DNA from: a virus
Taxonomy: Duplodnaviria > Caudoviricetes
Reading direction: 5' to 3' (one strand)
Virus record (IMG/VR): IMGVR_UViG_3300002026_000124
Coordinates: 1-64,000 of that record
Length of the DNA stretch: 64,000 bases
Positions within the stretch are counted from its first letter, which is position 1. Every line of letters starts with the position of its first letter. Positions 24,371 through 63,657 of this stretch are shown here, in pieces. A program made the position numbers and the translations under genes. The notes beneath the pieces were generated by a model. That model saw only the letters and a list, made by a program, of their open reading frames with translations. It was not told the DNA's origin and searched no databases.

Positions 24371-24401
24371 TTTGTATTTATGATTTTAAGTCGTACATTT
24401 G
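24371..24401 (+). promoter_or_regulatory. Bacteroidota sigma-A-type promoter of tRNA operon 1
   Basis: TTTG (24371-74), N19, TACATTTG (24394-401). Confidence 0.8.
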
Positions 24402-24430
24402 TACTCTGTAATAGTTAAACATAGTTTGAA

Positions 24431-24505
24431 ATGAAAAATTTAGTAAACATACAACCCCAGCCGCAACAACATCCAAAAGATGGTGAATGGGAAAAGTTTG
24501 CTTAA
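24431..24505 (+). CDS. Attenuator leader peptide 1, MKNLVNIQPQPQQHPKDGEWEKFA
   Basis: Hand translation; QPQPQQHP run matches the downstream Pro/Gln/His tRNAs. Confidence 0.85.
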   Translation: MKNLVNIQPQPQQHPKDGEWEKFA

Positions 24506-24532
24506 ATTTTCAAGAGAAGTTTTAGGTTAATT

Positions 24533-24564
24533 AAACCCCATTCGTGACGAGTGGGGTTTTTTTT
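24533..24564 (+). terminator. Attenuator terminator 1
   Basis: aaaccccattcg/cgagtggggttt stem plus T-run; 5' arm also complementary to leader 24485-24491. Confidence 0.85.
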
Positions 24565-24572
24565 GTTTTTAT

Positions 24573-24648
24573 CGGGATATAGTACAGTTGGTAGTATGCG
24601 TGCTTTGGGAGCATGAGGTCGTCAGTTCGAGTCTGGCTATCCCGACCA
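24573..24648 (+). tRNA. tRNA-Pro(TGG)
   Basis: Cloverleaf, loop TTTGGGA, C1-G72, encoded CCA. Confidence 0.95.
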
Positions 24649-24649
24649 A

Positions 24650-24743
24650 CAGGAAGTGAGCGAGAGGTTGAAGCTACTGGTCTTGGAAACCAGTCACGGC
24701 ACAAAGGCGTTGTCGTGCGTGGGTTCGAACCCCACCTTCCTGA
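24650..24743 (+). tRNA. tRNA-Pro(TGG) with 25-nt variable arm
   Basis: Acceptor caggaag/cttcctg, A73, stem ctggt/accag, loop CTTGGAA. Confidence 0.75.
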
Positions 24744-24813
24744 CATGTGGACTGGTTAGAATTTACATACAAGGTCGTCCGTAATTGGAAATGATGCGTA
24801 GGAAATTCAACAT

Positions 24814-24888
24814 GGTGGGTATAGCTTAGTTGGTTAAAGCGTCTGATTGTGGTTCAGAAGACCGTGGGTTCGAACCCCACTATCCACC
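24814..24888 (+). tRNA. tRNA-His(GTG)
   Basis: G-1:C73, loop TTGTGGT. Confidence 0.95.
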
Positions 24889-24896
24889 CTTTTTTT

Positions 24897-24972
24897 CGAG
24901 TAGTTGGGGAGTTGGTCACCCCGCCACATTTGGGATGTGGAGAACTCGCAGGTTCGAATCCTGCCTACTCGA
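24897..24972 (+). tRNA. tRNA-Pro(TGG)
   Basis: Acceptor cgagtag/ctactcg, loop TTTGGGA. Confidence 0.9.
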
Positions 24973-24974
24973 CT

Positions 24975-25049
24975 GTGTTAGGCGTAGATGTTGGCATCTT
25001 CACTTGGCTGTGAACCAAGGCTTCGGGGGTTCGATTCCCCTCTAACACC
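24975..25049 (+). tRNA. tRNA-His(GTG), no encoded G-1
   Basis: Stem cttgg/ccaag, loop CTGTGAA, C73. Confidence 0.75.
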
Positions 25050-25141
25050 TAAAAGCGTGATAAAAGAGTTTATCACGTTTATATGTGATTGAATATAAAA
25101 TTTACTAATCAGCTTATATTATATTCAATCACATATAATAC

Positions 25142-25214
25142 TGTCTCGTGGTGTAATTGGCAACATGTTTGGCTCTGAACCAAAAGAGTAGGGGTTCGAA
25201 ACCCTTCGAGACAA
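25142..25214 (+). tRNA. tRNA-Gln(CTG)
   Basis: Acceptor tgtctcg/cgagaca, loop CTCTGAA. Confidence 0.9.
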
Positions 25215-25219
25215 CATAT

Positions 25220-25300
25220 TATCCTTTGGCAGAATGGTCATTGCATCGCCCTTTGAAGGCGACACCGAGAGGTTTGCAGGTTCGAGTCCTGCAGGGATAA
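25220..25300 (+). tRNA. tRNA-Gln(TTG) with long variable arm
   Basis: Stem tcgcc/ggcga, loop CTTTGAA, extra arm caccgagaggttt. Confidence 0.8.
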
Positions 25301-25417
25301 CAAAAAGTTTTTGGAAATCTTGTATTTATTATTATCTTTGCATAAATATTGCTGGTATAATAACACGTTGTTATAGAATAGTACACGATGCATACTATCG
25401 CCAACATTTTTTAATAT

Positions 25418-25490
25418 TGTCCTGTGGTGTAATTGGCAACACGTCTGGTTTTGGTCCAGAAGAGTTCAGGTTCGAGACCTGACGGGACAA
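25418..25490 (+). tRNA. tRNA-Gln(TTG)
   Basis: Stem tctgg/ccaga, loop TTTTGGT; internal promoter TTTG-N19-TATCTTTG at 25310-25340 upstream. Confidence 0.9.
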
Positions 25491-25503
25491 CAAATTTATT
25501 ATT

Positions 25504-25653
25504 ATGGGAAAATTAAGAGTTGGAAACAAGGAAAATTCTTTACTTAATGGTGAATGGGCAGGTCATGTTAGAAAAGATGGTAAGGAATGGACTGCAAGAA
25601 AACGCAGAAACCTTGACAAAGAAATAATTAAAAAGGAAAGCAATGAGTTATAA
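25504..25653 (+). CDS. Small basic hypothetical protein (49 aa)
   Basis: Hand-translated MGKLRVGNKENSLLNGEWAGHVRK...; overlaps the next start. Confidence 0.45.
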   Translation: MGKLRVGNKENSLLNGEWAGHVRKDGKEWTARKRRNLDKEIIKKESNEL

Positions 25654-26065
25654 TTTATTCTTAGATGACTACAGATTTCCAAAGGAAACTGTTGATTACA
25701 TGTTTATTCCAATCTACACTAGTGAAGAATGGATAATCGTCAGGAATTACTATGCCTTTATTACAATAATTCAAAAGAAAGGTCTTCCGGATATCATTTC
25801 TTTCGACCACGACCTTGCAGATGTTCATTATAAGAATCAGGTTTTCGATTATAATGATGAAACCCTGGAAAAAACCGGATATCATTGTGCAAAATGGCTC
25901 ATTGACTATTGTCTCGATAATAATTTAGAAGTTCCCACAAGAATATTAATACATTCAATGAATCCTTACGGGACACAGAATATCAAATCAGTTTTCGAAA
26001 CCTACTTCAAGGTTTATGGTAAAGAATATAGTCCAATTAGCATTACCCCAAGCATGCGTAGATAA
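25643..26065 (+). CDS. Cyclic-phosphate-processing receiver-like domain protein
   Basis: LFLDD.R.P, ISFDHDL, KTGY..AKWL and IHSMNP.G motifs. Confidence 0.65.
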   Translation: MSYNLFLDDYRFPKETVDYMFIPIYTSEEWIIVRNYYAFITIIQKKGLPDIISFDHDLADVHYKNQVFDYNDETLEKTGYHCAKWLIDYCLDNNLEVPTRILIHSMNPYGTQNIKSVFETYFKVYGKEYSPISITPSMRR

Positions 26066-26155
26066 TTGTTTTTAATGTCTTTGCAGCTTAAGTCCCAATC
26101 TTTTAAATAAAAGGATAGTATTTATATAAAATAAGTACATAATAAAATATCAATT

Positions 26156-27325: not shown

Positions 27326-27365
27326 AATAAAAAAATAAAAATATTTTAATTTTTTTTCGAAAAAG

Positions 27366-27396
27366 TTTGTATTTATCAAAAATGTCTCTATCTTTG
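27366..27396 (+). promoter_or_regulatory. Bacteroidota sigma-A-type promoter of tRNA operon 2
   Basis: TTTG (27366-69), N19, TATCTTTG (27389-96). Confidence 0.8.
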
Positions 27397-27428: not shown

Positions 27429-27542
27429 ATGAAAAATTTACTCAACATATTATCAGTAGTCCTAGTGGATGCGCTCTTATGGGCAGCGGATGAGGATATG
27501 GTATATCGTGTCGGGTCGAAAGATACTGGAGTAGGTTATTAA
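27429..27542 (+). CDS. Attenuator leader peptide 2, MKNLLNILSVVLVDALLWAADEDMVYRVGSKDTGVGY
   Basis: Hand translation; 17 of residues 8-25 are L/V/D/A/W/E/M, matching the downstream tRNAs. Confidence 0.85.
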   Translation: MKNLLNILSVVLVDALLWAADEDMVYRVGSKDTGVGY

Positions 27543-27562: not shown

Positions 27563-27592
27563 AAACCCGACCCGAAAGAGTCGGGTTTTTTT
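27563..27592 (+). terminator. Attenuator terminator 2
   Basis: aaacccgac/gtcgggttt stem, GAAA loop, T-run; leader 27511-27518 is complementary to 27568-27575. Confidence 0.85.
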
Positions 27593-27618
27593 ATTGTTCT
27601 TTGACATGTTGGAAATTT

Positions 27619-27689
27619 GGTCTATTAGGGTATGGGTATCCTTGGTGGTTGTCGCCCACCAGAATCGAGTTCGAGTCTCGAATAGACCG
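27619..27689 (+). tRNA. tRNA-Asp(GTC)
   Basis: Stem ggtgg/ccacc, loop TTGTCGC, G73. Confidence 0.85.
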
Positions 27690-27838
27690 CTAAACATTTG
27701 ATTGTCGGGTTATTACTCAGAGGGTTTTAACTTACGAAGATAGACGTGTTAGTATAATAAGTACACTTGCCTTAAATAAGTAGGAAGTTGTAACATGAAA
27801 AGGTTATCACACGTAACAAGAACGTCAAATGTTTTTAA

Positions 27839-27910
27839 CGGGGTCGTAGTTTAATGGTTAGAATACCGCACTGTCTATGCGGGGAAGGGGTTCGAATCCC
27901 ACGGCTTCGG
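27839..27910 (+). tRNA. tRNA-Asp(GTC), weak T-stem
   Basis: Stem ccgca/tgcgg, loop CTGTCTA, G73; only 3 bp in the T-stem. Confidence 0.7.
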
Positions 27911-27924
27911 CAAAATTTAAATTT

Positions 27925-28044
27925 ATGAAAAAGAATAAGTCGTCCGAAAATACCGGACAGTTAAAATCAAAAGTTTGCTTTAAAGTAATTTCTAAAGAGG
28001 AATTAAAGAAAAACAGAAGTAATGCATATGATTACTTAATTTAA
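27925..28044 (+). CDS. Small basic ORF (39 aa)
   Basis: Hand translation MKKNKSSENTGQ...YDYLI. Confidence 0.35.
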   Translation: MKKNKSSENTGQLKSKVCFKVISKEELKKNRSNAYDYLI

Positions 28045-28167
28045 TCTACCGATAATCTACCGTTATAACAGTAAAAAGTGCAATATGTTGCACAATCTAC
28101 CGATAATCTACCGATAATCTACCGATAATTACCGTTATAACAGTAAAAAGTGCAATATGGTGCACAA
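28043..28167. repeat. Compound tandem repeat (11-mer aatctaccgat plus duplicated palindrome-containing unit)
   Basis: 11-mer repeated 1x then 3x; taccgttataacagtaaaaagtgcaatatgNtgcacaa present twice. Confidence 0.85.
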
Positions 28168-28171
28168 AAAC

Positions 28172-28255
28172 GCAGCATTATACAAGCGGTCAAAGTAGCA
28201 AGTCCTTCAAACTTGCATCTTCGGATTTCGAGGGGTTCGAATCCCCCATGCTGTA
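28172..28255 (+). tRNA. Class II-type tRNA, anticodon TTC (Glu) by geometry, C33
   Basis: Acceptor gcagcat/atgctgt, stem caagt/acttg, loop CCTTCAA, variable hairpin atc-ttcg-gat. Confidence 0.65.
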
Positions 28256-28306
28256 CCTTGACTTTTCTGTACCATAGGACTATTTATAATAAAATATTAT
28301 ACTCCT

Positions 28307-28951
28307 ATGGCACGAAAAGAAAAAAAATATCACTTTATTTATAAAACAATAAACATCATAAATAATAAGTTTTATATTGGTATGCATTCAACAGACAATT
28401 TGAATGATGGATATGTTGGTAGCGGAACAAGACTTTGGTATTCAATAAATAAATATGGTAGGGAAAATCATAGATTGGAAATACTTGAATTTCATGAAAC
28501 ACGAATTATATTAAAAGAACGTGAAAAGAATTTAGTAAATGAGGATTTATTGAAAAATCCTATGTGCATGAACATAAAGATTGGTGGTGAAGGTGGATTA
28601 AATGGTCTTTCACAAGAATCAATTAAAAAAATACGTAAGGGTGCATCTGATTTCATGAAAATGAAGTGGAATGAACCAGAATTTAGAAATATGTGTTCTC
28701 AACGTTCTATAATTAAAATGAAAGAAAATCATAGACTTGGTAAAATGAGATATGATACGTTTATTGGTAAATCTCATAGTGAAGAAACAAGAGAACTTAT
28801 GAAAGTAGTTCATAAGGGAATGGGTATTGGTTCTACAAATTCTCAATTCGGTACTTGTTGGATAACTAAGTGTGGCGTAAATAAAAAAATTAATAATAAT
28901 GATTTGTCCTTATATATTAGTGATGGTTGGTGTAAGGGTAGAGTCATATAA
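28307..28951 (+). mobile_element. Free-standing GIY-YIG homing endonuclease (Seg-like) in the tRNA array
   Basis: FIYKTIN...KFYIGMHST...Y.GSG; NUMOD3-like GKSHSEETR. Confidence 0.85.
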
Positions 28952-28952
28952 T

Positions 28953-29024
28953 GGTCCGTTCGTCTAACGGTTAGGACGGCAGGTTTTCATCCTGTTAATA
29001 GGGTTTCGATTACCCTACGGACTA
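28953..29024 (+). tRNA. tRNA-Glu(TTC)
   Basis: Stem gcagg/cctgt, loop TTTTCAT. Confidence 0.9.
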
Positions 29025-29031
29025 CTAAAAT

Positions 29032-29104
29032 TGCGTGTTGTGGAAGTTGGCTCTCCGGACAGAATCATAATCTGTAGACACTGGTTCAAATCCAGTACAC
29101 GCAA
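29032..29104 (+). tRNA. tRNA-CAT (Met or Ile2)
   Basis: Stem acaga/tctgt, loop ATCATAA. Confidence 0.8.
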
Positions 29105-29111
29105 CAATATT

Positions 29112-29186
29112 GCTCTCTTAACTCAGTTGGTTCAGAGTGTCACGCTTACAACGTGAAGGTCGGGGGTTCGACTCCCTCAGAGAGCA
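29112..29186 (+). tRNA. tRNA-Val(TAC)
   Basis: Stem tcacg/cgtga, loop CTTACAA. Confidence 0.92.
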
Positions 29187-29303
29187 CAAATGCCGTAAGT
29201 CTGGATAAAATTCCTTAAAGGGAAACTGGAGTAGCGAATAACTTAAAGCGAAGTGGTTTCGTGATAGACGGTTGTGATGAAAAGTTAGTCACTCATTAGT
29301 CGC

Positions 29304-29379
29304 AGGGTAGAATGGTGTAAGAATGGGAGCACGTTTGCGATAAGCAAAAAGACGAAAGGTTCGAATCCGAAATACCCCT
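29304..29379 (+). pseudogene. Degenerate tRNA-like sequence
   Basis: GGTTCGAATCC present but T-stem is 2 bp; anticodon loop lacks U33. Confidence 0.45.
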
Positions 29380-29383
29380 TAAT

Positions 29384-29458
29384 AGTCCCTTAGTTTAGTT
29401 GGTAAAAACGTCTGGCTTACATCCAGAAGATGCACTGGTTCGAATCCAGTAGGGACTA
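29384..29458 (+). tRNA. tRNA-Val(TAC)
   Basis: Stem tctgg/ccaga, loop CTTACAT. Confidence 0.9.
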
Positions 29459-29468
29459 CTTTTGACAT

Positions 29469-29534
29469 ACGGTTTAGGACCGTTATAGCTTCGGCTATAA
29501 AGGGGGTGGGATGTTCGCTACTGACCACCCCTTT
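29469..29534 (+). ncRNA. Compact three-hairpin element
   Basis: acggt/accgt, tatagc-UUCG-gctata and a 10-bp aagggggtgg/ccaccccttt stem. Confidence 0.45.
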
Positions 29535-29653
29535 ACAAAAAACGTTTAATTTTGCATAGTTATTCTTATTAATTTAAACTATCTGTGCAAATTTTATCGG
29601 TTGTAGAGGCGATAAGCATAGTTTATCGGTTGTAGAGACGATAAAATTTAAAT

Positions 29654-29735
29654 ACGGGTATAGTCCAACGGTAGGACGCTCTCTGTCCAAGGGGAGAAAT
29701 AGGCTGCAGTCAGGGTTCAATTCCCCTTACCCGTG
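29654..29735 (+). tRNA. tRNA-Asp(GTC)-like with aberrant anticodon arm and long variable region
   Basis: Acceptor acgggta/tacccgt, G73, D-stem gtcc/ggac, CTGTC present, loop irregular. Confidence 0.5.
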
Positions 29736-29795
29736 CAAAAAATAATTATTATCCTTGTATTATATATTAACTGCATATACTAAGATAATAAATAT

Positions 29796-29877
29796 CTCGC
29801 AGTGTCGTAATTGGTAGCCGGGACAGTCTAAGAAGCTGTTGCCTTCGGGTGTGTGGGTTCGAGTCCCACTTGCGAGA
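29796..29877 (+). tRNA. tRNA-Leu(AAG)
   Basis: Stem acagt/gctgt, loop CTAAGAA, long variable arm, A73. Confidence 0.8.
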
Positions 29878-29884
29878 CGAATAT

Positions 29885-29939
29885 GGGGATGTGATGAAAT
29901 TGGCGATACATGCCAGACTTAGAATCTGGCGCTAATAAA
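29885..29939 (+). pseudogene. 5' two-thirds of tRNA-Leu(TAG), truncated in the variable arm
   Basis: GGGGATG..D-arm..ccaga CTTAGAA tctgg, then no T-arm. Confidence 0.7.
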
Positions 29940-29952
29940 CTGGCTTCACTTT

Positions 29953-30029
29953 GGGGCAGTAGTGACAATTGGCTAACACGACAGATTTGCACTCTGTAAA
30001 TGGGGTATCATACATCCCCTGCTCCACCA
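29953..30029 (+). tRNA. tRNA-Ala(TGC) with non-canonical T-loop
   Basis: G3:U70, loop TTTGCAC, encoded CCA; T-loop ATCATAC. Confidence 0.75.
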
Positions 30030-30098
30030 CAACATTGGTTTCGAAAACCAACGTCTCCACTTTTCCAGAAAACCAAGTATTTATAATAAAGAAATATT

Positions 30099-30917
30099 GT
30101 GAATACTTGGAAAACTAATAGAAAAACAATTTTAATTAATTGTGAAAATTGTGGAAATGAATTCAAAAAAACATTATCTGAATATAATCGTTCAGAAAAA
30201 TTAAATAAAAAACATTTTTGTTCATTAAAATGTAATAATGAATCTAAAAAGATTAAACTAAAATTCTGTTTACAATGTAATGAAGAGTTTATTCCCGATA
30301 AAAATAAAACTAAGTTCTGTTCACATTCTTGTAACGCAAAATATAATAATAAAAATAGAAAGGGTATTAAATACAATATAAGTGAAAATGGTTTAATTGG
30401 ATTAAGGGAATCGTATAAAAATAATTTCGGATATGATATTATAAAATTTAGAAATAACTATTATCAATCACAGAATTATTGTAAAGAATGTAATGAACCT
30501 ATTCCATATGAAAAAAAGAATCATGTTTTTTGTAATCGGGATTGTAAAAGAACATATGATAGAAAGAATTTAACTGAATATCAAAAATACTATAAAGATT
30601 GTCAATTTAAATTTGGTTTATCAGACTATCCAAATGAATTTGATTTCGAATTGATTAAAACACATGGTTGGTATCAACCAAAAAATCATGGCAATAACTT
30701 AGGTGGAATTAGTAGAGACCATATGATTTCAGTAAAATATGGATATGAAAATAATATTAGTTCTGAGATAATTAGTCATCCTGCCAATTGTCAATTGATG
30801 ATTCATAATGAGAATATTAGTAAATATAAGAATTGTTCAATAACATTAGAAGAACTAATGATTAAAATTGATAATTGGAATGAAAAATATTCACAAATAA
30901 CAATGGGTTTAACATAG
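30099..30917 (+). mobile_element. Zn-finger/HNH-type homing endonuclease
   Basis: Repeated CxxC...FCS..C modules and C-terminal RDHMISV...HPANC...H..N..K. Confidence 0.75.
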
Positions 30918-30981
30918 TGGCGAGTGTTAACCGTAAGTCCTGCGTGGCTGGTAACGGTGGTTCGATTCCATCAGCCTGTTG
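30901..30981 (+). ncRNA. Non-canonical tRNA-like RNA
   Basis: Intact T-arm ggtgg-TTCGATT-ccatc, 7-bp D-like stem, 8-bp acceptor-like stem, no standard anticodon loop. Confidence 0.4.
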
Positions 30982-30986
30982 TTTAT

Positions 30987-31059
30987 GCCCTGTTGACGTA
31001 ATTGGCAACCGTATTGGTCTTAAAAGCCAAGTTTCTCAGTTCGAATCTGAGGCGGGGTA
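30987..31059 (+). tRNA. tRNA-Leu(TAA) with short (4-nt) variable loop
   Basis: Stem ttggt/gccaa, loop CTTAAAA, A73. Confidence 0.8.
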
Positions 31060-31095
31060 CTATTTAAAAATTTTATAGTATTTATGATAAAAACT

Positions 31096-31416
31096 ATGGA
31101 TACAAAACAAAAATTATTCGAGATGATGGGTAAACTAAATCATGATTTTAAACAATCAAAAATTGTTGAAGGGTTTGAAAATAGTAATAATCCAATTAAT
31201 TCCGAACAATTAACCCAAAAGGATGTGGCATCTAAAATTAGAAATCGAGGATATCAATATCACACAGATACTACACTTAAAACAATTGGTGTAAATGCTA
31301 TTATAGATGAAATGAAACCCAGAGATTTACAATATTTTTTGGATTTAGGGTTTGTACGTGAACCATTAGGTGATTTAGGTTCAGAATATGATTCATTAAA
31401 TTATCATTACATATAA
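31096..31416 (+). CDS. Hypothetical protein with LFE-type N-terminal motif
   Basis: MDTKQKLFEMMGKLNHDF; start at 31096, after GTATTTAT at 31078. Confidence 0.6.
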   Translation: MDTKQKLFEMMGKLNHDFKQSKIVEGFENSNNPINSEQLTQKDVASKIRNRGYQYHTDTTLKTIGVNAIIDEMKPRDLQYFLDLGFVREPLGDLGSEYDSLNYHYI

Positions 31417-31420
31417 ATCT

Positions 31421-31936
31421 ATGGACTACCATTTGAGTTTATTTATCATGTCGATTCTTGTATTTGTTTCCTATGTCGGAGCAGTATGGATTAAATTCGG
31501 TGTACAGCCATCAATAAGTGCAAGTTATGATTGTTGGAAAGGCTTATGGCAATCACTTTTCGTATTATTCTGTTGGGGATTTGCATTTCCTGCAATGGTT
31601 ATTGGTATAGAAGTAACGCCATTAATGTTTTTTGCTTGTGCTGGAATTATGTTTGTAGGTGCCGCATATGAAATAAAAATTAAATGGGTATATGAATATC
31701 ATATGGTATTTGCAATATCCGGAATTATATTTAGCCAGTTAGCAATTTACTTTGGTTATGATTTACTATGGGTTAACATAGTATCGGTTGTATTATCAGT
31801 ATTAATATTATTAGGTAAATTGTATCTTGGTTTAAAGAATCACTTCTGGTGGATAGAGTTAGTTGCCTTTGCTGCAATAGTTTATGCAATGGGAACTAAG
31901 ATTATTCCTTTCTTATATCTAACAACACTTAATTAA
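31421..31936 (+). CDS. Polytopic membrane protein
   Basis: About five hydrophobic segments. Confidence 0.65.
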   Translation: MDYHLSLFIMSILVFVSYVGAVWIKFGVQPSISASYDCWKGLWQSLFVLFCWGFAFPAMVIGIEVTPLMFFACAGIMFVGAAYEIKIKWVYEYHMVFAISGIIFSQLAIYFGYDLLWVNIVSVVLSVLILLGKLYLGLKNHFWWIELVAFAAIVYAMGTKIIPFLYLTTLN

Positions 31937-31939
31937 AAT

Positions 31940-32022
31940 TCGTTCGTGGTAGAGTGGTCGATTACATTGGTCTCCAAAACCAATAGAGAAATCTCACGTG
32001 GGTTCGAATCCTACCGAACGAG
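31940..32022 (+). tRNA. tRNA-Trp(CCA) with long variable arm
   Basis: Stem ttggt/accaa, loop CTCCAAA, G73, extra arm gag-aaat-ctc. Confidence 0.85.
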
Positions 32023-32231
32023 CATAAATAATGGTAAAAATTGCGGGTACGTACACAAGTCAAAGTTCTTTCCAACGGAACACCGACTACTACTGAGGGT
32101 AGAGATATTCCCAAGAGCAATATCAGTTAGTGTATGACCATTATTTTATAATTTTTTATAAAATTTCCAAAAATCTTTAAATTTTTATTATTTTTTATTT
32201 TTCAGATAGTATTTATCTGAAAAGTATAACT

Positions 32232-40290: not shown

Positions 40291-40291
40291 T

Positions 40292-41348: not shown

Positions 41349-41630
41349 GGGGGCGACTTGGATTTGATTAGATGTCAGATTGGTAAAGTAAGCAAGTCTT
41401 AGTTGAATCAGACTAAGTAAAAAAGAGTGTTGAACTCGCAATGGTAGCGTAGGGAATAAACAAACCAACAAAAACTTCTGGTGAAGTAAGTTATGAATAA
41501 GTGAGTAACGAATCCCGAAGAGAAACTAAAATGTAAACTATTCTATTTTGCTTGTTTAGAAAAACGAGATAAACTTGTAGAAAACCTATTAATCACATTT
41601 AAGACGAGGGTTCGAATCCCTCCGCTTCCA
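41349..41630 (+). ncRNA. ssrA: tmRNA (short, ~282 nt)
   Basis: 5' GGGGGCGACTTGGATTTGA; 3' GAC-GAGGG-TTCGAAT-CCCTC-CGCTTCC-A; G3:U70 alanine identity. Confidence 0.85.
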
Positions 41631-41656
41631 CTTAATACATTAAAAATCAATTAGTT

Positions 41657-41932
41657 ATGGGAAAGAAATCATTGAAAAGTAAATTAATTGGATTAGTACT
41701 TAAAAATCTATGTAAAGAAAATTTTGAATTAATTACACAAGAATTAGTACAAGATGATTTAAATAAATATTTAGCATTTAAAACAAGAGTTTCTGATTTT
41801 AGATTATGTGAAGACCAAAATTTTAAAAGTGCTGGAATATCATTTACTGATGATAATGATGAATTTCGTGTGATTAATGTTACTATTGGACAAACAATTA
41901 CATCGAAAAATAAACTATTAAAAATCAATTAG
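41657..41932 (+). CDS. Hypothetical protein
   Basis: 91-aa ORF. Confidence 0.5.
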   Translation: MGKKSLKSKLIGLVLKNLCKENFELITQELVQDDLNKYLAFKTRVSDFRLCEDQNFKSAGISFTDDNDEFRVINVTIGQTITSKNKLLKIN

Positions 41933-41934
41933 TT

Positions 41935-42363
41935 ATGGGACTCGATTATGAAAAAATGAGCAAAATGTTGGATGATTATATTGCATCACCAGAAGGTATT
42001 GCATATTTCGAAAATAAACGAATTATCCAAGAAATTCAAGAAGGTCGCTACAGGCGTTTTGAGGCGTATTTACAGACACATGATTTTGATAAGTTAATGT
42101 ATCGGCTAATACTTGAACATGGGGAAGAATGGCGTGAAAAATGCTACCACAGTGGTTGTGAACCATATCCTAATAACAAGCTGCAATTCATCATCGATTA
42201 TGTACAACGTGAATTTGAAGTAATTAGGGTAGCACAACTTGAGAATATGTTTAATACGCAAATAAGGTTCTTCAAGGGATATTATTTCAGAATCATGCAT
42301 GGTCAGGGCAGTTGTTTTGATTTATATAATGGTGGGGATTTTAAACATTTATTAAGTGCATGA
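41935..42363 (+). CDS. Hypothetical protein
   Basis: 142-aa ORF. Confidence 0.55.
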   Translation: MGLDYEKMSKMLDDYIASPEGIAYFENKRIIQEIQEGRYRRFEAYLQTHDFDKLMYRLILEHGEEWREKCYHSGCEPYPNNKLQFIIDYVQREFEVIRVAQLENMFNTQIRFFKGYYFRIMHGQGSCFDLYNGGDFKHLLSA

Positions 42364-42671
42364 AAAAATTCAATAAATTAGTAAGGGATAGGATTCCGGA
42401 AATCATTGTAAAAAAGGGTTCGAAATGTGATTATCATATTGCTGAAAATAATGAAGAATTTATAACTAAACTTCACGAAAAACTCAGGGAAGAAGTCCAG
42501 GAATTCGAAGATAACCCAAGTATTGAAGAAATGGTTGACATAATGGAAGTTCTGGAAAGTCTATCAATATATTACGGTTTTGAAGCAGATGAAATCGATA
42601 AAGAGAAGAAAGAAAAGAATGAAAAACGTGGGGGATTCAAAAAAAGAATAATATTGGATTCTACGGATTAA
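42360..42671 (+). CDS. MazG-like / PRA-PH-like nucleotide pyrophosphohydrolase
   Basis: KLVRDRIPEII...KL.EE..EF...EE..D..EV pattern. Confidence 0.75.
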   Translation: MKKFNKLVRDRIPEIIVKKGSKCDYHIAENNEEFITKLHEKLREEVQEFEDNPSIEEMVDIMEVLESLSIYYGFEADEIDKEKKEKNEKRGGFKKRIILDSTD

Positions 42672-42732
42672 GAGATAAAATGTTAACCATTAAATGGGTG
42701 GCGATTCATTAGTAGTTAATATATTAACCAAT

Positions 42733-42821
42733 GGCGGGGTGGTGGAATTGGTAGACACGCTGGACTTAAAATCCAGTGGGCAGTAATGCCCGTGTGGGTT
42801 CGAGTCCCATCCCCGCTACCA
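42733..42821 (+). tRNA. tRNA-Leu(TAA)
   Basis: Canonical class II, loop CTTAAAA, encoded CCA. Confidence 0.95.
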
Positions 42822-42836
42822 AAAATTAGAAAAATT

Positions 42837-43109
42837 ATGGCGAAATTAAAAGTGCCTGTGGATGTACTGTATGAAAAATGCAGGAAAGTCATTAATCATG
42901 AAATCCGAATTGAATCTCGTGAAGAAGCAAGAGAAATTATGCTACTTACTACAGAGAAGCATCGTAATGATTTCGTCAAATATCACCAACAGGACATGGG
43001 TAATATTTGTTGCATGGTTCTTGATGCAGCAAAGCAAGACTTGGTGAAAGAAGGAAAATTAGTTCTGAAACCCGAAGATAGTTTCGGACACCCATTAACA
43101 TTTGAATAA
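42837..43109 (+). CDS. Hypothetical protein
   Basis: Start moved to ATG 42837, downstream of the tRNA. Confidence 0.5.
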   Translation: MAKLKVPVDVLYEKCRKVINHEIRIESREEAREIMLLTTEKHRNDFVKYHQQDMGNICCMVLDAAKQDLVKEGKLVLKPEDSFGHPLTFE

Positions 43110-43149
43110 TATGGCAATAATTTATTAAAAAAACTGTAAAGAAAAGACT

Positions 43150-43332
43150 ATGATAGATATTAAAGCGGGTGAAGGTTTATGCGAATATATTCGAAGGGCA
43201 AATGGTATGAAAAAAGAAATATCGCAATTAAGTGACATACCAAAAATTGTAAATAGTGATAAAATTACAATTACTGGTGGTGCTGAATTTATTGGGAAAT
43301 TTTTGAATGCGTTACCGGAAGAATATAAATAA
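43150..43332 (+). CDS. Small hypothetical protein
   Basis: 60-aa ORF. Confidence 0.4.
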   Translation: MIDIKAGEGLCEYIRRANGMKKEISQLSDIPKIVNSDKITITGGAEFIGKFLNALPEEYK

Positions 43333-43339
43333 TTTTAAA

Positions 43340-43422
43340 GTCCTTGTGATGAAATTGGTAGCACGTGATAGTTTCAAAAACTATTGCCTTCGGGCGTGAG
43401 GGTTCGAGTCCCTCCAAGGACA
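43340..43422 (+). tRNA. tRNA-Leu(CAA)
   Basis: Stem atagt/actat, loop TTCAAAA, long variable arm. Confidence 0.88.
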
Positions 43423-43446
43423 CTAATTTAATTAAAATTTAAAACG

Positions 43447-43496
43447 ATGAAAGAAAAATTTAAAGTCTTGTAGGTTGCTCTAATGCGACTACAAGA
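43447..43496 (+). promoter_or_regulatory. uORF MKEKFKVL* with hairpin covering the next initiation region
   Basis: ATG 43447 to TAG 43473; 12-bp stem 43466-43496 ends 2 nt before ATG 43499. Confidence 0.5.
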
Positions 43497-43498
43497 AA

Positions 43499-43819
43499 AT
43501 GAGAGTAAAAACTATTTCAAAGACCACTACTAATCGTGGTGTATTCAATCGTGCGTATAAAGAACTTCTTGAACGCAAAGGTAGAATCCATTGTTCACGT
43601 TGCAAATACCATAAAGGTGAAAACTATGAAGGTAAATGGTATGGAGAATATATTTATGACGATATGAATACCTGTCGTGGTAAATCAGGAACTCATACAA
43701 AGTTACCAAATTGGAAACTTGTTTCAAAACAACCAAAACAATGGATGAAAAAACCCATCAAATTTGTTGATAAACAATATGGTGGGTACAGGTACATTTA
43801 CGTTGACATCAAATGGTGA
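43499..43819 (+). CDS. Small very basic protein with CxxC
   Basis: K/R-rich 106 aa. Confidence 0.55.
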   Translation: MRVKTISKTTTNRGVFNRAYKELLERKGRIHCSRCKYHKGENYEGKWYGEYIYDDMNTCRGKSGTHTKLPNWKLVSKQPKQWMKKPIKFVDKQYGGYRYIYVDIKW

Positions 43820-43830
43820 TGTCAACACAT

Positions 43831-43902
43831 TGCGAGTTAGCTTAGTGGTAAAGCATCACCTTCATAAAGTGGAGACCGAGGGTTCGAGTCCCTCACTCGC
43901 AA
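43831..43902 (+). tRNA. tRNA-CAT (Met or Ile2)
   Basis: Acceptor tgcgagt/actcgca, loop TTCATAA, one stem mismatch. Confidence 0.8.
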
Positions 43903-43945
43903 CAAAAAACCCATCGAATTCGATGGGTTTAGATTTCCAATATGT

Positions 43946-47752: not shown

Positions 47753-48850
47753 TTGCACATGAACTCATTTTTAGAAAAAGTCGATTGGAATGTATTAAAT
47801 ACATATATCGACAATAGCTTAATTATCTCAAACAAGCATCCAGAATATGATATTTGGATTCTTAATTATTCGCCAAAGGTTCAGTCTAAGAAATTTTGGG
47901 ATGAATATACTTTGTCATGCCGTGGACTCGTTATTGATGCCGAAGGCAATATCTTAGCACGACCATTTCAAAAATTCAAGAACTATGAAGAATATGACCC
48001 ATCAGAATTCGATTGGTCTCAGGACTTCGATGTGTTTGAAAAAATGGATGGCTCATTAATTATCTTATTTTACTACGAACCACGTATGGAATGGATAATT
48101 GCGTCAAGGGGTTCTTTCGCATCTGAACAAGCGATTGAAGGAAGAAAAATGATTGAGTCTAATACATATAATCATTTAGACGTTAAAGAAACATATTTGT
48201 TCGAAATTCTGTATCCAGAAAATCGCATTGTTGTCGATTACGGTAATAGAAGAGAATTAGTATTATTAGGTAGAGTTAACACTTTAGATGGTTTTGAATT
48301 ATATTATGACGATTTAGTTTCAATGCATTCAAAATATTTTACCGTTGTAAAGAAATTTAATATTAAGTCTTTCGTTGAATTAAGAGAATTGATAACTAAG
48401 GGTGAAGAAAACAAAGAAGGATTTGTAATTAGGTTTTACAGTGGTTTAAGAATTAAGATGAAATTTGCTGAATATGTTAGACTACACGGAATCATAACAA
48501 ATGTCTCAAATCTAGTTGTTTGGGAACATTTGAGAGACAAATATGAATTTGATGAATTGCTTGATAGAGTACCTGACGAGTTTTATCAGTGGCTTAATAA
48601 AACAGTAGCAACATTAAATAATGAATTCTACAATATTGAGAGATTGGCGTTGAAGGAATTTATTAGGATTTATTATAATGACGACACTGTTATTCGTAAA
48701 GATTTTGCAATGGAAGCACAAAAAAGTGCTTATCGTTCAATTTTATTTAAAATTTACGATAAAAATAGTTACGATGAAATCATATGGAATATGATAAGAC
48801 CTGAATATAGTAAACCATTTAAGGATGGTTATGTAGATGAAACTTTATGA
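47753..48850 (+). CDS. RNA ligase, T4 Rnl1 family
   Basis: CRGL...ARPF.KF.N, EKMDGS (motif I), FEI..PENRIVV, EGFV and K.K motifs. Confidence 0.88.
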   Translation: MHMNSFLEKVDWNVLNTYIDNSLIISNKHPEYDIWILNYSPKVQSKKFWDEYTLSCRGLVIDAEGNILARPFQKFKNYEEYDPSEFDWSQDFDVFEKMDGSLIILFYYEPRMEWIIASRGSFASEQAIEGRKMIESNTYNHLDVKETYLFEILYPENRIVVDYGNRRELVLLGRVNTLDGFELYYDDLVSMHSKYFTVVKKFNIKSFVELRELITKGEENKEGFVIRFYSGLRIKMKFAEYVRLHGIITNVSNLVVWEHLRDKYEFDELLDRVPDEFYQWLNKTVATLNNEFYNIERLALKEFIRIYYNDDTVIRKDFAMEAQKSAYRSILFKIYDKNSYDEIIWNMIRPEYSKPFKDGYVDETL

Positions 48851-51703: not shown

Positions 51704-51746
51704 TGTAACATTTACTTGTTTTATTCGTATTTATGTCTTTACTTTG
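51704..51746 (+). promoter_or_regulatory. Promoter region of tRNA operon 3
   Basis: TGTAACA-N15-CGTAT variant (51704-30) and near-consensus CTTG-N20-TTACTTTG (51715-46). Confidence 0.55.
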
Positions 51747-51902: not shown

Positions 51903-51930
51903 ACCCGATTCGAAAGATTCGGGTTTTTTT
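51903..51930 (+). terminator. Attenuator terminator 3
   Basis: acccgattc-GAAA-gattcgggt plus T-run; leader 51841-48 is complementary to 51904-11. Confidence 0.85.
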
Positions 51931-51937
51931 GTTTTTA

Positions 51938-52011
51938 GACCTCTTAGCTCAATTGGTAGATGCACCACCCTTTTAAGGTGGGGGTTCTGGGTTCAAGTCC
52001 CAGAGGGGTCA
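51938..52011 (+). tRNA. tRNA-Lys(TTT)
   Basis: Stem ccacc/ggtgg, loop CTTTTAA. Confidence 0.92.
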
Positions 52012-52016
52012 CAAAT

Positions 52017-52106
52017 GAGAGTACGGCAACGAGTGGTGTTGCGCAGAGGCGCATAATCTCTGTCCCAGTGGGGTGAACATAGGTGGTTCGAATCCATCTG
52101 CTCTCA
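52017..52106 (+). tRNA. Non-canonical tRNA-CAT (G33, 6-bp anticodon stem, long variable arm)
   Basis: Acceptor gagagta/tgctctc, loop CGCATAA. Confidence 0.55.
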
Positions 52107-52111
52107 CAAAT

Positions 52112-52192
52112 GCCAGTATTGAACAGGTGGTGAGTTTAAGACTCTGTAAAAGTCTCGCTTCGGCTGTGTAGGTTCGATTCCTGCTGCTGGCA
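52112..52192 (+). tRNA. tRNA-Tyr(GTA)
   Basis: Stem agact/agtct, loop CTGTAAA, variable arm. Confidence 0.88.
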
Positions 52193-52246
52193 CTTACGGT
52201 AGAGTTTAGGCAATTTCTGTACCCAACGTAACTGAAATATCCATAC

Positions 52247-52317
52247 GCACCCGTAGCAAAGGGGATATGCCTCTGGCTTTTAACCAGATGACACAGGTTC
52301 GATTCCTGTCGGGTGCA
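52247..52317 (+). tRNA. tRNA-Lys(TTT)
   Basis: Stem tctgg/ccaga, loop CTTTTAA. Confidence 0.88.
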
Positions 52318-52372
52318 CTTTTAGGGTTTTTTACTACTTTTTAAGTCCAATGTCCCAATAAAAAGTAGACAA

Positions 52373-52457
52373 GTATTCGTAGCAAAGTGGTTATGCTCCT
52401 GCCTTTTAAGCAGAGTGTCTAAACAACACAACGTGGGTTCGATTCCCACCGAATACA
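52373..52457 (+). tRNA. tRNA-Lys(TTT) with long variable arm
   Basis: Loop CTTTTAA, extra arm gtgt...acac. Confidence 0.8.
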
Positions 52458-52462
52458 CAAAT

Positions 52463-52545
52463 GGACAGGTGGGTGAGTGGTTAAAACCGCCAGACTGTAA
52501 ATCTGGTAGCTTCGGCTTTCGGGGGTTCGAATCCCTCCCTGTCCA
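52463..52545 (+). tRNA. tRNA-Tyr(GTA)
   Basis: Canonical; ccaga CTGTAAA tctgg. Confidence 0.95.
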
Positions 52546-52552
52546 CAAATAT

Positions 52553-52795
52553 ATGATTATGGAAACACTAAAAGAAATTGTGAATGGAACTATGGCTAAA
52601 CTAAGCCATATATGCAATGGTAAAGCGTATTATAGAATTGATAATGAGAATCATTCTTATCAACTTGAAATTAATTGCAATGATGCTGAATGGAAAGATG
52701 TGTATATCTATCCTGAAATCAAAGCAATTACATTAATGAGGTGGATACGCAAGGGTATTGAAAAACAGGATGACACATTCATCGTGTTGAAATAG
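52553..52795 (+). CDS. Hypothetical protein
   Basis: Start moved downstream of tRNA-Tyr. Confidence 0.55.
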   Translation: MIMETLKEIVNGTMAKLSHICNGKAYYRIDNENHSYQLEINCNDAEWKDVYIYPEIKAITLMRWIRKGIEKQDDTFIVLK

Positions 52796-52801
52796 GCTCA
52801 A

Positions 52802-52873
52802 GCACTCGTGGCAGAATGGCGATGCTACTCCCTCTTAAGGAGACCAATAGGGGTTCGATTCCCTTCGGGTGCA
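52802..52873 (+). tRNA. tRNA-Lys(CTT)
   Basis: Loop CTCTTAA, acceptor gcactcg/cgggtgc. Confidence 0.85.
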
Positions 52874-52878
52874 CAATT

Positions 52879-53385: not shown

Positions 53386-53563
53386 TGATATTACTTTTCA
53401 ATAAATACATTCTAAATACAATCAATTATAGTTTTTATTTAGATTATTATAATATGTTTAATAGCATGTTTTAGAATTATTTATTGATTTTTTTTGGCGG
53501 TTTAAATTATTTACCATAATTTTGTCTTCGAATTCAAGTACAAAACTTGGATTATATAAATAT

Positions 53564-55216: not shown

Positions 55217-55341
55217 ATTCCGATAATCAATAAGAAGCCGAGAAAATATCTCGGCTTTTTTATTTAAAATCACTATTGCATTTTAATTTTAATTAATTTA
55301 TATTTGCTAAAAATAACTTTAAAGCATAAGCAATATGAAAA

Positions 55342-56100
55342 ATGACTAATAAAAAAAGGAAGGTAACTACTACTGTTACGACAACTGTTACCGAAGAAAT
55401 TATTAAAATAACCTCAAACGAAAAAACTCACATTATCTGTATTTTAGACCAAAGTGGTTCGATGTCAAATATTATGTCGGACAGTATTGGTGGTTTCAAT
55501 GCATTCCTTAAAAAGCAAAAAGAATTACCTGATGAAGCAACTATTACCGTTGCATTATTTGATGATAAATATAAACTGCTTTATGATAATATTGATATTA
55601 AAAAAGCAGAAGAACTTACAAGTGCAGTTTGGTATCCACAGGGGATGACAGCACTTTATGATGCGATTGGTAAAACAATCAATGTCGAGAAAAGAAATTT
55701 TGAAATACTTGGAAACGAAGCACCTGCAAAAGTATTGTGTGTTATTGTAACCGATGGTGAAGAAAATAGTAGTAAAGAATATAAATTAGAAGATGTTAAA
55801 AAATTAATTAAATCTTGTGAAAAAGATAACTGGAACTTCATGTATTTAGCTGCGAATCAAGATGCGTTTGCTGTTGGAACAAGTTTTGGTGTAAGTGCTG
55901 GAAATACATTTAATTATACTGCAAGTGCTGCTGGTGTTGCAAATATGTCAGCGACACTGAATAATGCGAGTGTAAGCTATAGGTCAATGAGTAGCACATC
56001 AGATAATTTTCAGAAATTGTCTAAGAAATTAATTGATGATAAGGACGATGATGTAATAAAAGATGTTATCACGACAAGTGGTACATTCACAATTAAATAA
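55342..56100 (+). CDS. vWA domain protein
   Basis: MIDAS DQSGSM, TALYDAIG, IVTDGEENSS. Confidence 0.85.
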   Translation: MTNKKRKVTTTVTTTVTEEIIKITSNEKTHIICILDQSGSMSNIMSDSIGGFNAFLKKQKELPDEATITVALFDDKYKLLYDNIDIKKAEELTSAVWYPQGMTALYDAIGKTINVEKRNFEILGNEAPAKVLCVIVTDGEENSSKEYKLEDVKKLIKSCEKDNWNFMYLAANQDAFAVGTSFGVSAGNTFNYTASAAGVANMSATLNNASVSYRSMSSTSDNFQKLSKKLIDDKDDDVIKDVITTSGTFTIK

Positions 56101-61688: not shown

Positions 61689-61866
61689 TCATTTTTAATA
61701 AATTAAAACCCCGGAAAATATTCGGGGTTTTTTTGTAACGTAAACTTAATATTCGTTTTTGATTCATAACAGTATGTATAGTTGTCAGGTCGGAAAGTGC
61801 CTTAAATGTTCCTATACTGGAATTGCCTGATTCCCTTTTTTATTGTATTTATATAGAAAGACTGTC

Positions 61867-62106
61867 ATGAAAAGAAAATTATTTGCAATCATATTAATTT
61901 TATCCGTAATATTATTATCTGGATGTGCAACCGAACAATATGCACAAGTACATCGGAAGAAAAAATCGTTGATGTTGTTGAAAAACACTGAGTTAGATAG
62001 GAATATTAAACTTTATAAACAAAGGCATAATCATTATAATAAACGTGATTTTGATAAGCATATTAGAAAACAAAAAAATCATTTTTACGGTAATTCTAAA
62101 AAATAA
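61867..62106 (+). CDS. Small lipoprotein-like basic protein
   Basis: MKRK + hydrophobic stretch + LSGC lipobox. Confidence 0.55.
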   Translation: MKRKLFAIILILSVILLSGCATEQYAQVHRKKKSLMLLKNTELDRNIKLYKQRHNHYNKRDFDKHIRKQKNHFYGNSKK

Positions 62107-62116
62107 TTGAAAAAAG

Positions 62117-62147
62117 TTTGCAGATATTGAAACTTTATTTACCTTTG
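62117..62147 (+). promoter_or_regulatory. Bacteroidota sigma-A-type promoter of tRNA operon 4
   Basis: TTTG (62117-20), N19, TACCTTTG (62140-47). Confidence 0.8.
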
Positions 62148-62189
62148 CGGAGTATTTAGTTTTATACAAGACATAAAATTTATAAAATA

Positions 62190-62318
62190 ATGAAATCACA
62201 AGTATCCAATATTAACATTTCGTCAACGATTAATAGTCGTAATGGAGAAAGTATATTCTGTTCAAGTTTTACAGGCAGAAATATAGCGGATACGGGTTCA
62301 GGATTTTTATCGTGTTGA
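62190..62318 (+). CDS. Attenuator leader peptide 4, MKSQVSNINISSTINSRNGESIFCSSFTGRNIADTGSGFLSC
   Basis: Hand translation; S10 I5 T3 C2 match the downstream tRNAs; remainder is rich in N/G/F/R. Confidence 0.82.
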   Translation: MKSQVSNINISSTINSRNGESIFCSSFTGRNIADTGSGFLSC

Positions 62319-62342
62319 AATAAACACAAAAAAATTAAAAAG

Positions 62343-62372
62343 AACCCGAATTCGCAAGATTCGGGTTTTTTT
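62343..62372 (+). terminator. Attenuator terminator 4
   Basis: aacccgaat/attcgggtt, GCAA loop, T-run; leader 62293-99 is complementary to 62342-48. Confidence 0.85.
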
Positions 62373-62388
62373 ATGTTCTTTTTATACT

Positions 62389-62459
62389 GTCGGGATAATT
62401 TAGTGGTAGAATGCTTGTTTGGTATTCAAGCAACACCAGTTCGATTCTGGTTCTCGGCT
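62389..62459 (+). tRNA. tRNA-Thr(GGT)
   Basis: Loop TTGGTAT, acceptor gtcggga/tctcggc. Confidence 0.85.
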
Positions 62460-62463
62460 CAAA

Positions 62464-62513
62464 ATATAACTCTTACGGGTTATAAATACAAAATATAACC
62501 TCTACAGGTTATA
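62464..62513 (+). repeat. Tandem duplicated small hairpin (tataac-N8-gttata x2)
   Basis: Two diverged copies between tRNA-Thr and tRNA-Cys. Confidence 0.6.
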
Positions 62514-62547
62514 CTCCGTAAGATGTTCATTGACATGCTGGTTTTAT

Positions 62548-62622
62548 GCACGGATGGTCGAGTGGTCAAAGGCAACGCTCTGCAAAAGCGTACAATCGTG
62601 GGTTCGAATCCCACTCCGTGCT
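62548..62622 (+). tRNA. tRNA-Cys(GCA)
   Basis: Stem acgct/agcgt, loop CTGCAAA, U73. Confidence 0.93.
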
Positions 62623-62669
62623 CTGGGTCGTTTTCGTACTTTCTCAGTATTTATCTGAAAGTACAAATT

Positions 62670-63332
62670 ATGGCAAGAAAAGAAAAACAATATCATTTCA
62701 TTTATAAGACAACTAATAAGTTGAATGGTAAATATTATTACGGAATGCATTCCACAAATAATTTAAATGATGGATATTATGGTTCAGGAAAAAGATTGAG
62801 ACGTTCTTTGAATAAATATGGTAAAGAAAATCATGTTGTTGAATATCTTGAATTTCTACCCGATAGAAAATCGCTAATTGAACGTGAAAAAGAAATTGTT
62901 AATTTAAATGAAATTGCGAAAGAAGATTGTATGAATCTAATGGTTGGTGGAAAAGGTGGTTTTATTTCAGAACAGGCATTGAAGGGAAGATATGCTGCAG
63001 ATAAAATTTTGATTGAAAAATATGGTGAGAATTGGCGAAGAGTTATTTTTAGAAAATATTTTGATGGTTTAAGTGATGAAGAAAAAGAATTAATTTATCA
63101 GAAAATGAAAAAAACTAATGAAATAAATGGATATGACTATAAAGGTTTTTTAGGAAAAAAACATTTACCTGAAACCATAGAAAAAATGAAAAAAAGTAAG
63201 AATGTTGGGATAAATAATTCACAATTTGATACTTGCTGGATTTATTCTGATGAATATAGTAAACCACAAAAAATTAAAAAATTTCAATTAAATGAATTTA
63301 TTAATCGTGGTTGGCGAAAGGGAAGAAAATAA
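62670..63332 (+). mobile_element. Free-standing GIY-YIG homing endonuclease, paralog of 28307..28951
   Basis: MARKEKQYHFIYKTTN...YYYGMHST; start moved to ATG 62670. Confidence 0.85.
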
Positions 63333-63335
63333 TAC

Positions 63336-63416
63336 TGTGACGTGGATGAATGGTTTAGTCACCACGCTGATACCGTGGGTCGCAAGACAACGTGGGTTCG
63401 AGTCCCACCGTCACAA
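63336..63416 (+). tRNA. tRNA-Ile(GAT) with long variable arm
   Basis: Stem ccacg/cgtgg, loop CTGATAC, extra arm gtc-gcaa-gac. Confidence 0.82.
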
Positions 63417-63448
63417 CAAAGCAATCAAAATTTTAATCATTCACTAAT

Positions 63449-63533
63449 GGAAGAGTGTCCGAGTGGTTTATGGTGGCAGTCTTGAAAACTGCTGGATGTA
63501 AAAGTCCCGTGGGTTCGAATCCTACCTCTTCCG
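63449..63533 (+). tRNA. tRNA-Ser(TGA)
   Basis: Canonical class II, loop CTTGAAA, G73. Confidence 0.95.
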
Positions 63534-63572
63534 CACTATTTAATTGGAAATTGGGTAGAATATTTAAAAAAA

Positions 63573-63657
63573 GGAGGGGGGACAGGATGGTAATGTGCCT
63601 GTTTGCTAAACAGAGGCTGGGATAATACCCAAGAGTGGTCGGTACACTCTCTCTCCG
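63573..63657 (+). tRNA. tRNA-Ser(GCT) with non-canonical T-loop
   Basis: Loop TTGCTAA, G73, T-loop GTCGGTA. Confidence 0.75.

Follow-up and report, generated by a model that had tools for sequence, protein, structure and literature searches.

The window analyzed here is a 64,000-nt stretch of viral DNA, taken from the start of a 72,175-nt contig (IMG/VR record IMGVR_UViG_3300002026_000124), and it holds four tRNA clusters of the same layout. Each cluster lies behind a promoter, a short leader open reading frame (ORF) and an intrinsic terminator, and a segment late in the leader, the putative antiterminator, is complementary to the 5' arm of that terminator (Table 1). We consider it likely that these units work as ribosome-mediated transcription attenuators of the trp/thr/ilv type, acting by negative feedback and having tRNA genes as their output. 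This reading is built on parts, geometry, conservation and co-variation observed in the sequence, from which we infer translation of the leaders, switching and co-transcription of the long blocks.

A preliminary description of this DNA had proposed the same architecture, and all four units were located where it had placed them, each with a complementary segment of 7-9 nt. Some particulars needed amendment. Promoters were recognized ahead of clusters 1, 2 and 4, promoter 3 being degenerate. Moreover, the rule that leaders start with MK holds in the window but not in general, as homologs start with MR, MT, MI or MN. A -7-like promoter box was found upstream of 22/22 leader-1 homologs, as compared to 7/57 long ORFs.

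Table 1. Position of the four tRNA units and of other annotated features in the window (aa, amino acids).
Feature	Coordinates	Strand	Remarks
T4-like portal and large terminase	6425..10596	-	PF07230, PF03237; mark the element as a phage
Promoter 1, Bacteroidota-type (TTTG at -33, TAnnTTTG at -7)	24371..24401	+	consensus from PMC7366714
Leader 1, 24 aa	24431..24505	+	codons 8-15 all Pro/Gln/His; protector near 24455; antiterminator 24483-24491
Terminator 1 with U tract, -13.4 kcal/mol	24536..24565	+	hairpin 24536-24556
tRNA block 1: Pro x3, His x2, Gln x3	24573..25491	+	
Cyclic-phosphate-processing receiver domain protein	25643..26065	+	PF20274, E 5e-21; after block 1
Promoter 2	27366..27396	+	
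Leader 2, 37 aa	27429..27542	+	antiterminator 27510-27518; protector helix weak in the window copy
Terminator 2 with U tract, -10.0 kcal/mol	27566..27593	+	hairpin 27566-27585
tRNA block 2: Asp, Glu, Met, Val, Leu, Ala, Trp	27619..32023	+	broken up by ORFs
Transfer-messenger RNA (tmRNA), Leu-TAA, Leu-CAA, Met	41349..43927	+	followed by a hairpin at 43910
T4 Rnl1-type RNA ligase	47753..48850	+	PF09511, E 3e-20; in 4/5 complete relatives; outside the switch
Promoter 3, degenerate	51714..51746	+	-7-like box within 90 nt in 4/7 homologs
Leader 3, 30 aa	51783..51875	+	Tyr/Lys run at codons 7-16; antiterminator 51841-51848; protector helix conserved
Terminator 3 with U tract, -9.3 kcal/mol	51904..51932	+	hairpin 51904-51923
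tRNA block 3: Lys x4, Tyr x2	51938..52874	+	
Promoter 4	62117..62147	+	-7-like box in 19/19 homologs
Leader 4, 42 aa	62190..62318	+	antiterminator 62293-62299
Terminator 4 with U tract, -9.2 kcal/mol	62345..62373	+	hairpin 62345-62365
tRNA block 4: Thr, Cys, Ile, Ser x2 in the window	62389..64000	+	runs on to contig position 70375

We then focused on the relationship between leader composition and tRNA content. The amino-acid sets of blocks 1-4 are P/Q/H, L/V/D/A/E/M/W, K/Y and S/T/I/C/N/F/G/R, which form a partition of all 20. The first three sets had been described as such; the fourth, given previously as S/I/T/C, has to be extended by N/F/G/R, as block 4 continues past the window edge with tRNAs for Asn, Phe, Gly, Thr, Ile and Arg (contig positions 64108-70375). 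Own-set residues make up 8/23, 22/36, 12/29 and 34/41 of leaders 1-4, respectively (P between 1e-3 and 7e-7 against the phage proteome), and each window leader is enriched in its own set only. Sixteen of the 20 amino acids peak in the leader of their own block in the window, and 18/20 do so when homologs are pooled; the window value was matched in 0/200000 permutations, which backs the earlier claim that each leader mirrors its own cluster. In the sensor zone of leader 2 (the zone of codons matched to the block), 18/21 residues are Leu, Val, Asp, Ala, Glu, Met or Trp, and in that of leader 4, 25/28 are Ser, Thr, Ile, Cys, Asn, Phe, Gly or Arg, with all eight block-4 amino acids occurring. The Asn, Phe, Gly and Arg tRNAs, lying outside the window, provided a held-out test: all four amino acids are listed in the leader 4 sensor zone, and taken alone they are modestly enriched in that leader (14/41 versus 9.4 expected).

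The match between leader and tRNAs holds at the amino-acid level. Under standard wobble, 57/60 sensor codons are readable by the anticodons of their own block, so the feedback loop can close. Sensing at the level of isoacceptors was also considered and is not supported, as the zone lacks a codon for four of the block anticodons and the best cases fall in protector helices, formed by the antiterminator with the 5' portion of the leader. Rare codons with G or C in third position (GC3) are enriched in sensor zones, where codon diversity is slightly above expectation, and the strongest rare-codon cases (CCC in leader 1 and CTC in leader 2) sit in such helices.

Homologs were collected by searches in IMG/VR, resulting in 66 distinct units including those of the window (22, 18, 7 and 19 for families 1-4); seven further units were found later and stand outside this set. 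Downstream of the 66 leaders, 453/461 tRNAs are cognate, and the ratio of nonsynonymous to synonymous polymorphism (pN/pS) in leader codons is 0.37-0.61. The complete genomes G001 and G002 contain all four units, and G003 contains three, its Lys/Tyr leader appearing decayed before a lone Tyr tRNA. At that locus (L014:4150-4578), about 250 nt of unexplained sequence without Rfam match precede the terminator and the single tRNA. In relative L045, a Met tRNA has been gained and a Met codon has been gained in the Lys/Tyr run.

The preliminary description had suggested looking for co-variation of leaders and tRNAs in other phages, and this was found in lineages where the tRNAs are partitioned differently, with leaders picked by rule. 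Phage LR745206 (634 kb) carries five units with the sets N/R/L/V/I/T/M, P/D/Q, E/Y, I/G/M/A and H/F/W/K/R/S, each having a matching leader, terminator and complementary segment. Among cultured phages, Cellulophaga phage phi38:1 has three matched units (A/K/I/G/M/D/T/V/R, Y/S/N/W/F/C and P/E/Q/H/L/R), whose leaders lie at 35283, 36744 and 37987 of KC821614, and Cellulophaga phage phi4:1 at least two. Over 12 units from four phages with differing partitions, the unit's own set ranked top in 11 and was tied in one, an outcome reached in 0/500000 permutations; the leaders thus change to match the partition. No leader-terminator unit was found at the tRNA arrays of crAss001 and Lak-B1, and LR756500 has no unit for most of its tRNAs, its single unit having a poor antiterminator.

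The anatomy of the leaders is in agreement with a switch operated by a ribosome. In every family, a fixed leader segment is complementary to the terminator 5' arm. The cognate fraction for families 1-4 is 0.72, 0.90, 0.69 and 0.93 in the sensor zone versus 0.20, 0.41, 0.15 and 0.69 beyond it; over the final codons of the run it is still about 0.9-1.0, and it drops sharply 3-4 codons ahead of the antiterminator in all four families. This spacing corresponds to the point where a ribosome translating the leader begins to cover the antiterminator. Folding with and without the ribosome-covered region, a check put forward together with the original proposal, gave a switch at the end of each run: with a modelled ribosome of assumed footprint, the switch point fell at codons 15/16, 23/24, 15/16 and 29-32 of leaders 1-4. 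A modelled ribosome stalled on the regulatory codons left the antiterminator free, and in the naked full-length RNA the terminator was predicted to form with a probability of 0.95-1.00. The protector helix had predicted median probabilities of 0.76, 0.88, 0.76 and 0.55 in families 1-4, being weaker in family 4. In family 1 and most of family 2, the stop codon lies 2-14 nt past the antiterminator, close enough, according to the model, for a ribosome resting there to cover the segment.

Moreover, selection acts on the antiterminator as RNA, since it is retained in a shifted frame with a changed peptide over it (L009, L031), shows compensatory changes in its pairing (L017, L037), pairs more strongly than synonymous recodings in 16/18, 6/7 and 12/19 units of families 2, 3 and 4 (a null that is uninformative for family 1, where the peptide dictates the segment), and prefers its own terminator arm to those of other units (0/20000 in family 4 and 71/20000 in family 2). 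A separate partner-shuffle test was biased by per-sequence anchoring and was not relied on. With a leader, matched codons, a terminator and an antiterminator exclusive with it, the units bear out the earlier comparison with ribosome-stalling attenuators.

Based on these results, the following sequence of events can be proposed. Transcription by host RNA polymerase would begin at the Bacteroidota-type promoter, and the leader would be translated by a ribosome of the host. When tRNAs for the amino acids of the block are ample, the ribosome would clear the sensor run and either cover the antiterminator or be released so that the protector helix forms; the terminator would then fold, and transcription would end ahead of the tRNAs. 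Slow reading of any of the listed codons would make the ribosome wait in the sensor run, with the protector blocked, and the free antiterminator would pair with the terminator 5' arm, allowing the block to be transcribed. The new tRNAs would read the sensor codons, closing a negative-feedback loop, and four such loops would cover the 20 amino acids.

Several observations weigh against this mechanism, or reduce the strength of its support. Preference for the own terminator arm was not significant in families 1 and 3 (P of about 0.09 and 0.08), where there is little variation. The protector is predicted to be weak in window leaders 2 and 4 (0.20 and 0.45). In addition, in family 3, much of family 4 and window leader 2, the stop codon lies 19-27 nt past the antiterminator, and a ribosome at the stop of window leaders 2-4 would expose the segment (modelled pairing 0.67-1.0); termination would therefore hinge on timing and on refolding of the protector. 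As the homologs are related, pooled P values overstate their independence, the comparison across phages being the more independent one. Tracking of tRNA content by the leader is also imperfect within the clade: G003 has Phe among the tRNAs of block 1 and Pro/Met among those of block 4, with unchanged leaders, and L002 carries Cys before Lys, again with no leader change. Finally, attenuation assumes coupling of transcription and translation in the host, and leaders of this appearance can deceive, as in the ilvB leader of Streptomyces coelicolor mutations in the regulatory codons had no effect (PMC1262725).

The same switch could also serve a different purpose, with the phage reading the nutrient status of its host and making tRNAs when amino acids are short. 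Classical attenuators do respond to starvation, any shortage of a charged tRNA would stall the ribosome, and the match is seen at the amino-acid level. However, starvation would open the gates without the extra tRNAs curing it, as they would remain uncharged for lack of the amino acid itself. Moreover, partitions vary freely among phages and track no biosynthetic family, and genes for an RNA ligase and a cyclic-phosphate domain protein lie nearby. We therefore regard starvation as an unlikely purpose; the most likely trigger of the attenuators would be that functional tRNA is lost or overloaded in the infected cell, through anticodon nucleases, host tRNA decay or the translational demand of the phage itself. 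The RNA ligase, which suggests RNA repair, and the cyclic-phosphate domain protein provide context and are not proof of counter-defence, a role that is suggested for the blocks by analogy.

Two further explanations seem to us improbable. Any slowing of ribosomes might open all four blocks, leader composition merely tuning basal readthrough. In favour of this, a ribosome stalled anywhere ahead of the antiterminator opens the switch in our model, and the trn array of Anabaena is induced by general translational stress (PMC10272220); such a valve would not need leader residues to follow block content through re-partitioning in four phages. Equally doubtful is that the leaders encode small peptides with a function of their own or serve in processing, the terminator being evaded through internal promoters or through an antitermination factor of the phage. 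In support of it, pN/pS is below 1, leader 2 is hydrophobic, a possible internal promoter at 25310-25340, ahead of the last Gln tRNA of block 1, may bypass the gate, and S. coelicolor offers a precedent of non-functional regulatory codons; on the other side, substitutions remain within the cognate set, the peptide follows tRNA content, the C-terminus is variable, the stop codon lies anywhere between 2 and 27 nt from the antiterminator, and frameshifts after the run are tolerated. Chance can be dismissed almost entirely, for even if short ORFs and complementarities of 7-9 nt arise easily in AT-rich DNA, and leaders were initially chosen with the tRNAs known, it is refuted by conservation in more than 70 homologous units and by cross-lineage matching with rule-picked leaders, together with the held-out block-4 tRNAs and the permutation tests.

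Attenuators that sense several amino acids are known from enterobacteria, namely thrL and ilvL, alongside trpL, hisL, leuL and pheL. The phage units share with the thrL/ilvL type the promoter, the short leader ORF with cognate codons, the antiterminator and terminator helices, and the U tract, with a protector helix that is predicted across families 1-3 but weak in family 4 and in window leader 2. In contrast to it, they are viral, have tRNA genes rather than biosynthetic enzymes as output, sense up to eight amino acids each, partition all 20 among four units, and yield a product that would act back directly on the sensor codons. A leader anatomy of this kind has been described for trp and leuS leaders, and attenuation of charged-tRNA supply is found in synthetase genes (pheST; Streptomyces trpS and leuS), where it acts on the enzyme that charges the tRNA of a single amino acid, whereas the phage units would control the tRNAs themselves (PMC1262725). 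T-box riboswitches also antiterminate upon tRNA status, but bind uncharged tRNA and need no ORF; none was matched by Rfam among the leaders here. The Bacteroid-trp RNA motif (Rfam RF01692) is, we presume, an attenuator of the trp leader type, which would place the mechanism in the host phylum. It has been listed as a cis-regulatory candidate in Bacteroidetes (PMC2864571). An Rfam covariance-model scan of the leaders gave no match to it or to the Trp, His, Leu and Thr leaders. Similarly to the units described here, the Anabaena trn array is a silent tRNA operon turned on by translational stress (PMC8421152, PMC10272220), but there the repressor TrcR acts at initiation, on a single block and with no codon matching. 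Phage tRNA-Lys and tRNA-Tyr rescue infection against PARIS, PrrC and retron-Eco7, whose targets are Lys and Tyr tRNAs (PMC11464382, PMC11555353); such T5-like counter-defence tRNAs are under a strong promoter, in a paper with no mention of attenuation, whereas here they would be gated, Lys and Tyr having a block of their own (LR745206 groups them differently). In agreement with the preliminary description, which knew of no leader-peptide attenuation of phage tRNA genes, a literature search covering few subscription papers found no report of an attenuator controlling tRNA genes. What is new would thus be a known attenuator design with tRNA genes as output, in phages; arrays regulated by a repressor and counter-defence from strong promoters were known.

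Regarding the extent of the blocks, no intrinsic terminator was predicted between 27585 and 43910, nor between gate 4 and the next one at contig position 71140. For this reason, gates 2 and 4 may also control the tmRNA and distal Leu, Met, Arg and Gly tRNAs, and the cluster at 41349..43927 is possibly the distal end of operon 2. The tmRNA (41349-41633, Rfam RF00023) lies between Trp and the distal Leu/Met tRNAs, a position kept in L054 and L081. Block 1 contains a weak hairpin at 25056-25077. Block 2 includes a tRNA-Leu with an AAG anticodon (29796-29878), unusual in bacteria and recurring in several relatives, and a truncated tRNA-Leu(TAG) without T arm (29885-29952) that abuts tRNA-Ala. In block 4, a Glu-like tRNA with an aberrant anticodon loop was observed at contig positions 70221-70292, and leader 4 has one Glu codon; this tRNA was not found in the relatives checked, and L002 has a leader Glu codon with no such tRNA seen, an anecdotal observation. 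Immediately behind terminator 3, relatives L004, L005, L034 and L044 have a conserved non-tRNA stretch of about 250 nt ahead of their first tRNA, which may represent a structured RNA or a small ORF; in the window, a small ORF lies later in block 3 (52560-52795). Homing-endonuclease-like ORFs (NUMOD3 weak, GIY-YIG) are found within tRNA blocks at 28307-28951 and 62670-63332, and an HNH-like ORF separates terminator 1 from the first tRNA in G001. Other neighbours are a C5 DNA methylase (48847-49935) and, adjoining block 3, an HSP90-like ATPase followed by a vWA-domain protein (53522-56100).

The terminase has many relatives at 75-82% identity, several on contigs of 320-365 kb, which points to membership in a large, uncultured clade of jumbo phages. 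The host probably belongs to the Bacteroidota, as the promoters fit the TTTG / TAnnTTTG consensus of that phylum (PMC7366714) and translation-start features agree with it (PMC6847099): a Shine-Dalgarno-like motif precedes just 4/57 long ORFs, and A at -3 is present in 46/66 leaders. A search of GTDB with the leader-4 pattern found no cellular source, the only two matching contigs being in Patescibacteria bins and probably misbinned phage contigs. L089, a GTDB 'Candidatus Paceibacterota' genome, includes a 362,763-nt contig that agrees with a phage of this clade in both length and tRNA block. Several relatives carry tRNAs with a CTA anticodon, resembling amber suppressors (L009:17761, L023:5515, L032:16957, L095:11153), in phages that otherwise apparently use code 11.

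The presence of tRNA genes in phages has long called for an explanation, and codon bias, decay of host tRNAs and anticodon nucleases compete as answers. What a phage monitors would be recorded in its own switches, and whatever opens a block during infection would be the pressure to which its tRNAs respond; the design is present in Cellulophaga phages phi4:1 and phi38:1, both of them cultured and with a host in culture. If the proposal is true, attenuation would extend to tRNA genes and to phages, the sorting of tRNA arrays by amino acid would be explained, and these switches would supply natural multi-codon sensors. More tentatively, and with somewhat less than even confidence, Bacteroidota phages may widely carry a modular tRNA homeostat, in which codon-matched attenuators follow the decoding of all 20 amino acids, one block at a time, and release replacement tRNAs upon their depletion by host anticodon nucleases or tRNA decay; it would so provide an inducible, target-agnostic counter-defence against immunity that cleaves tRNAs.

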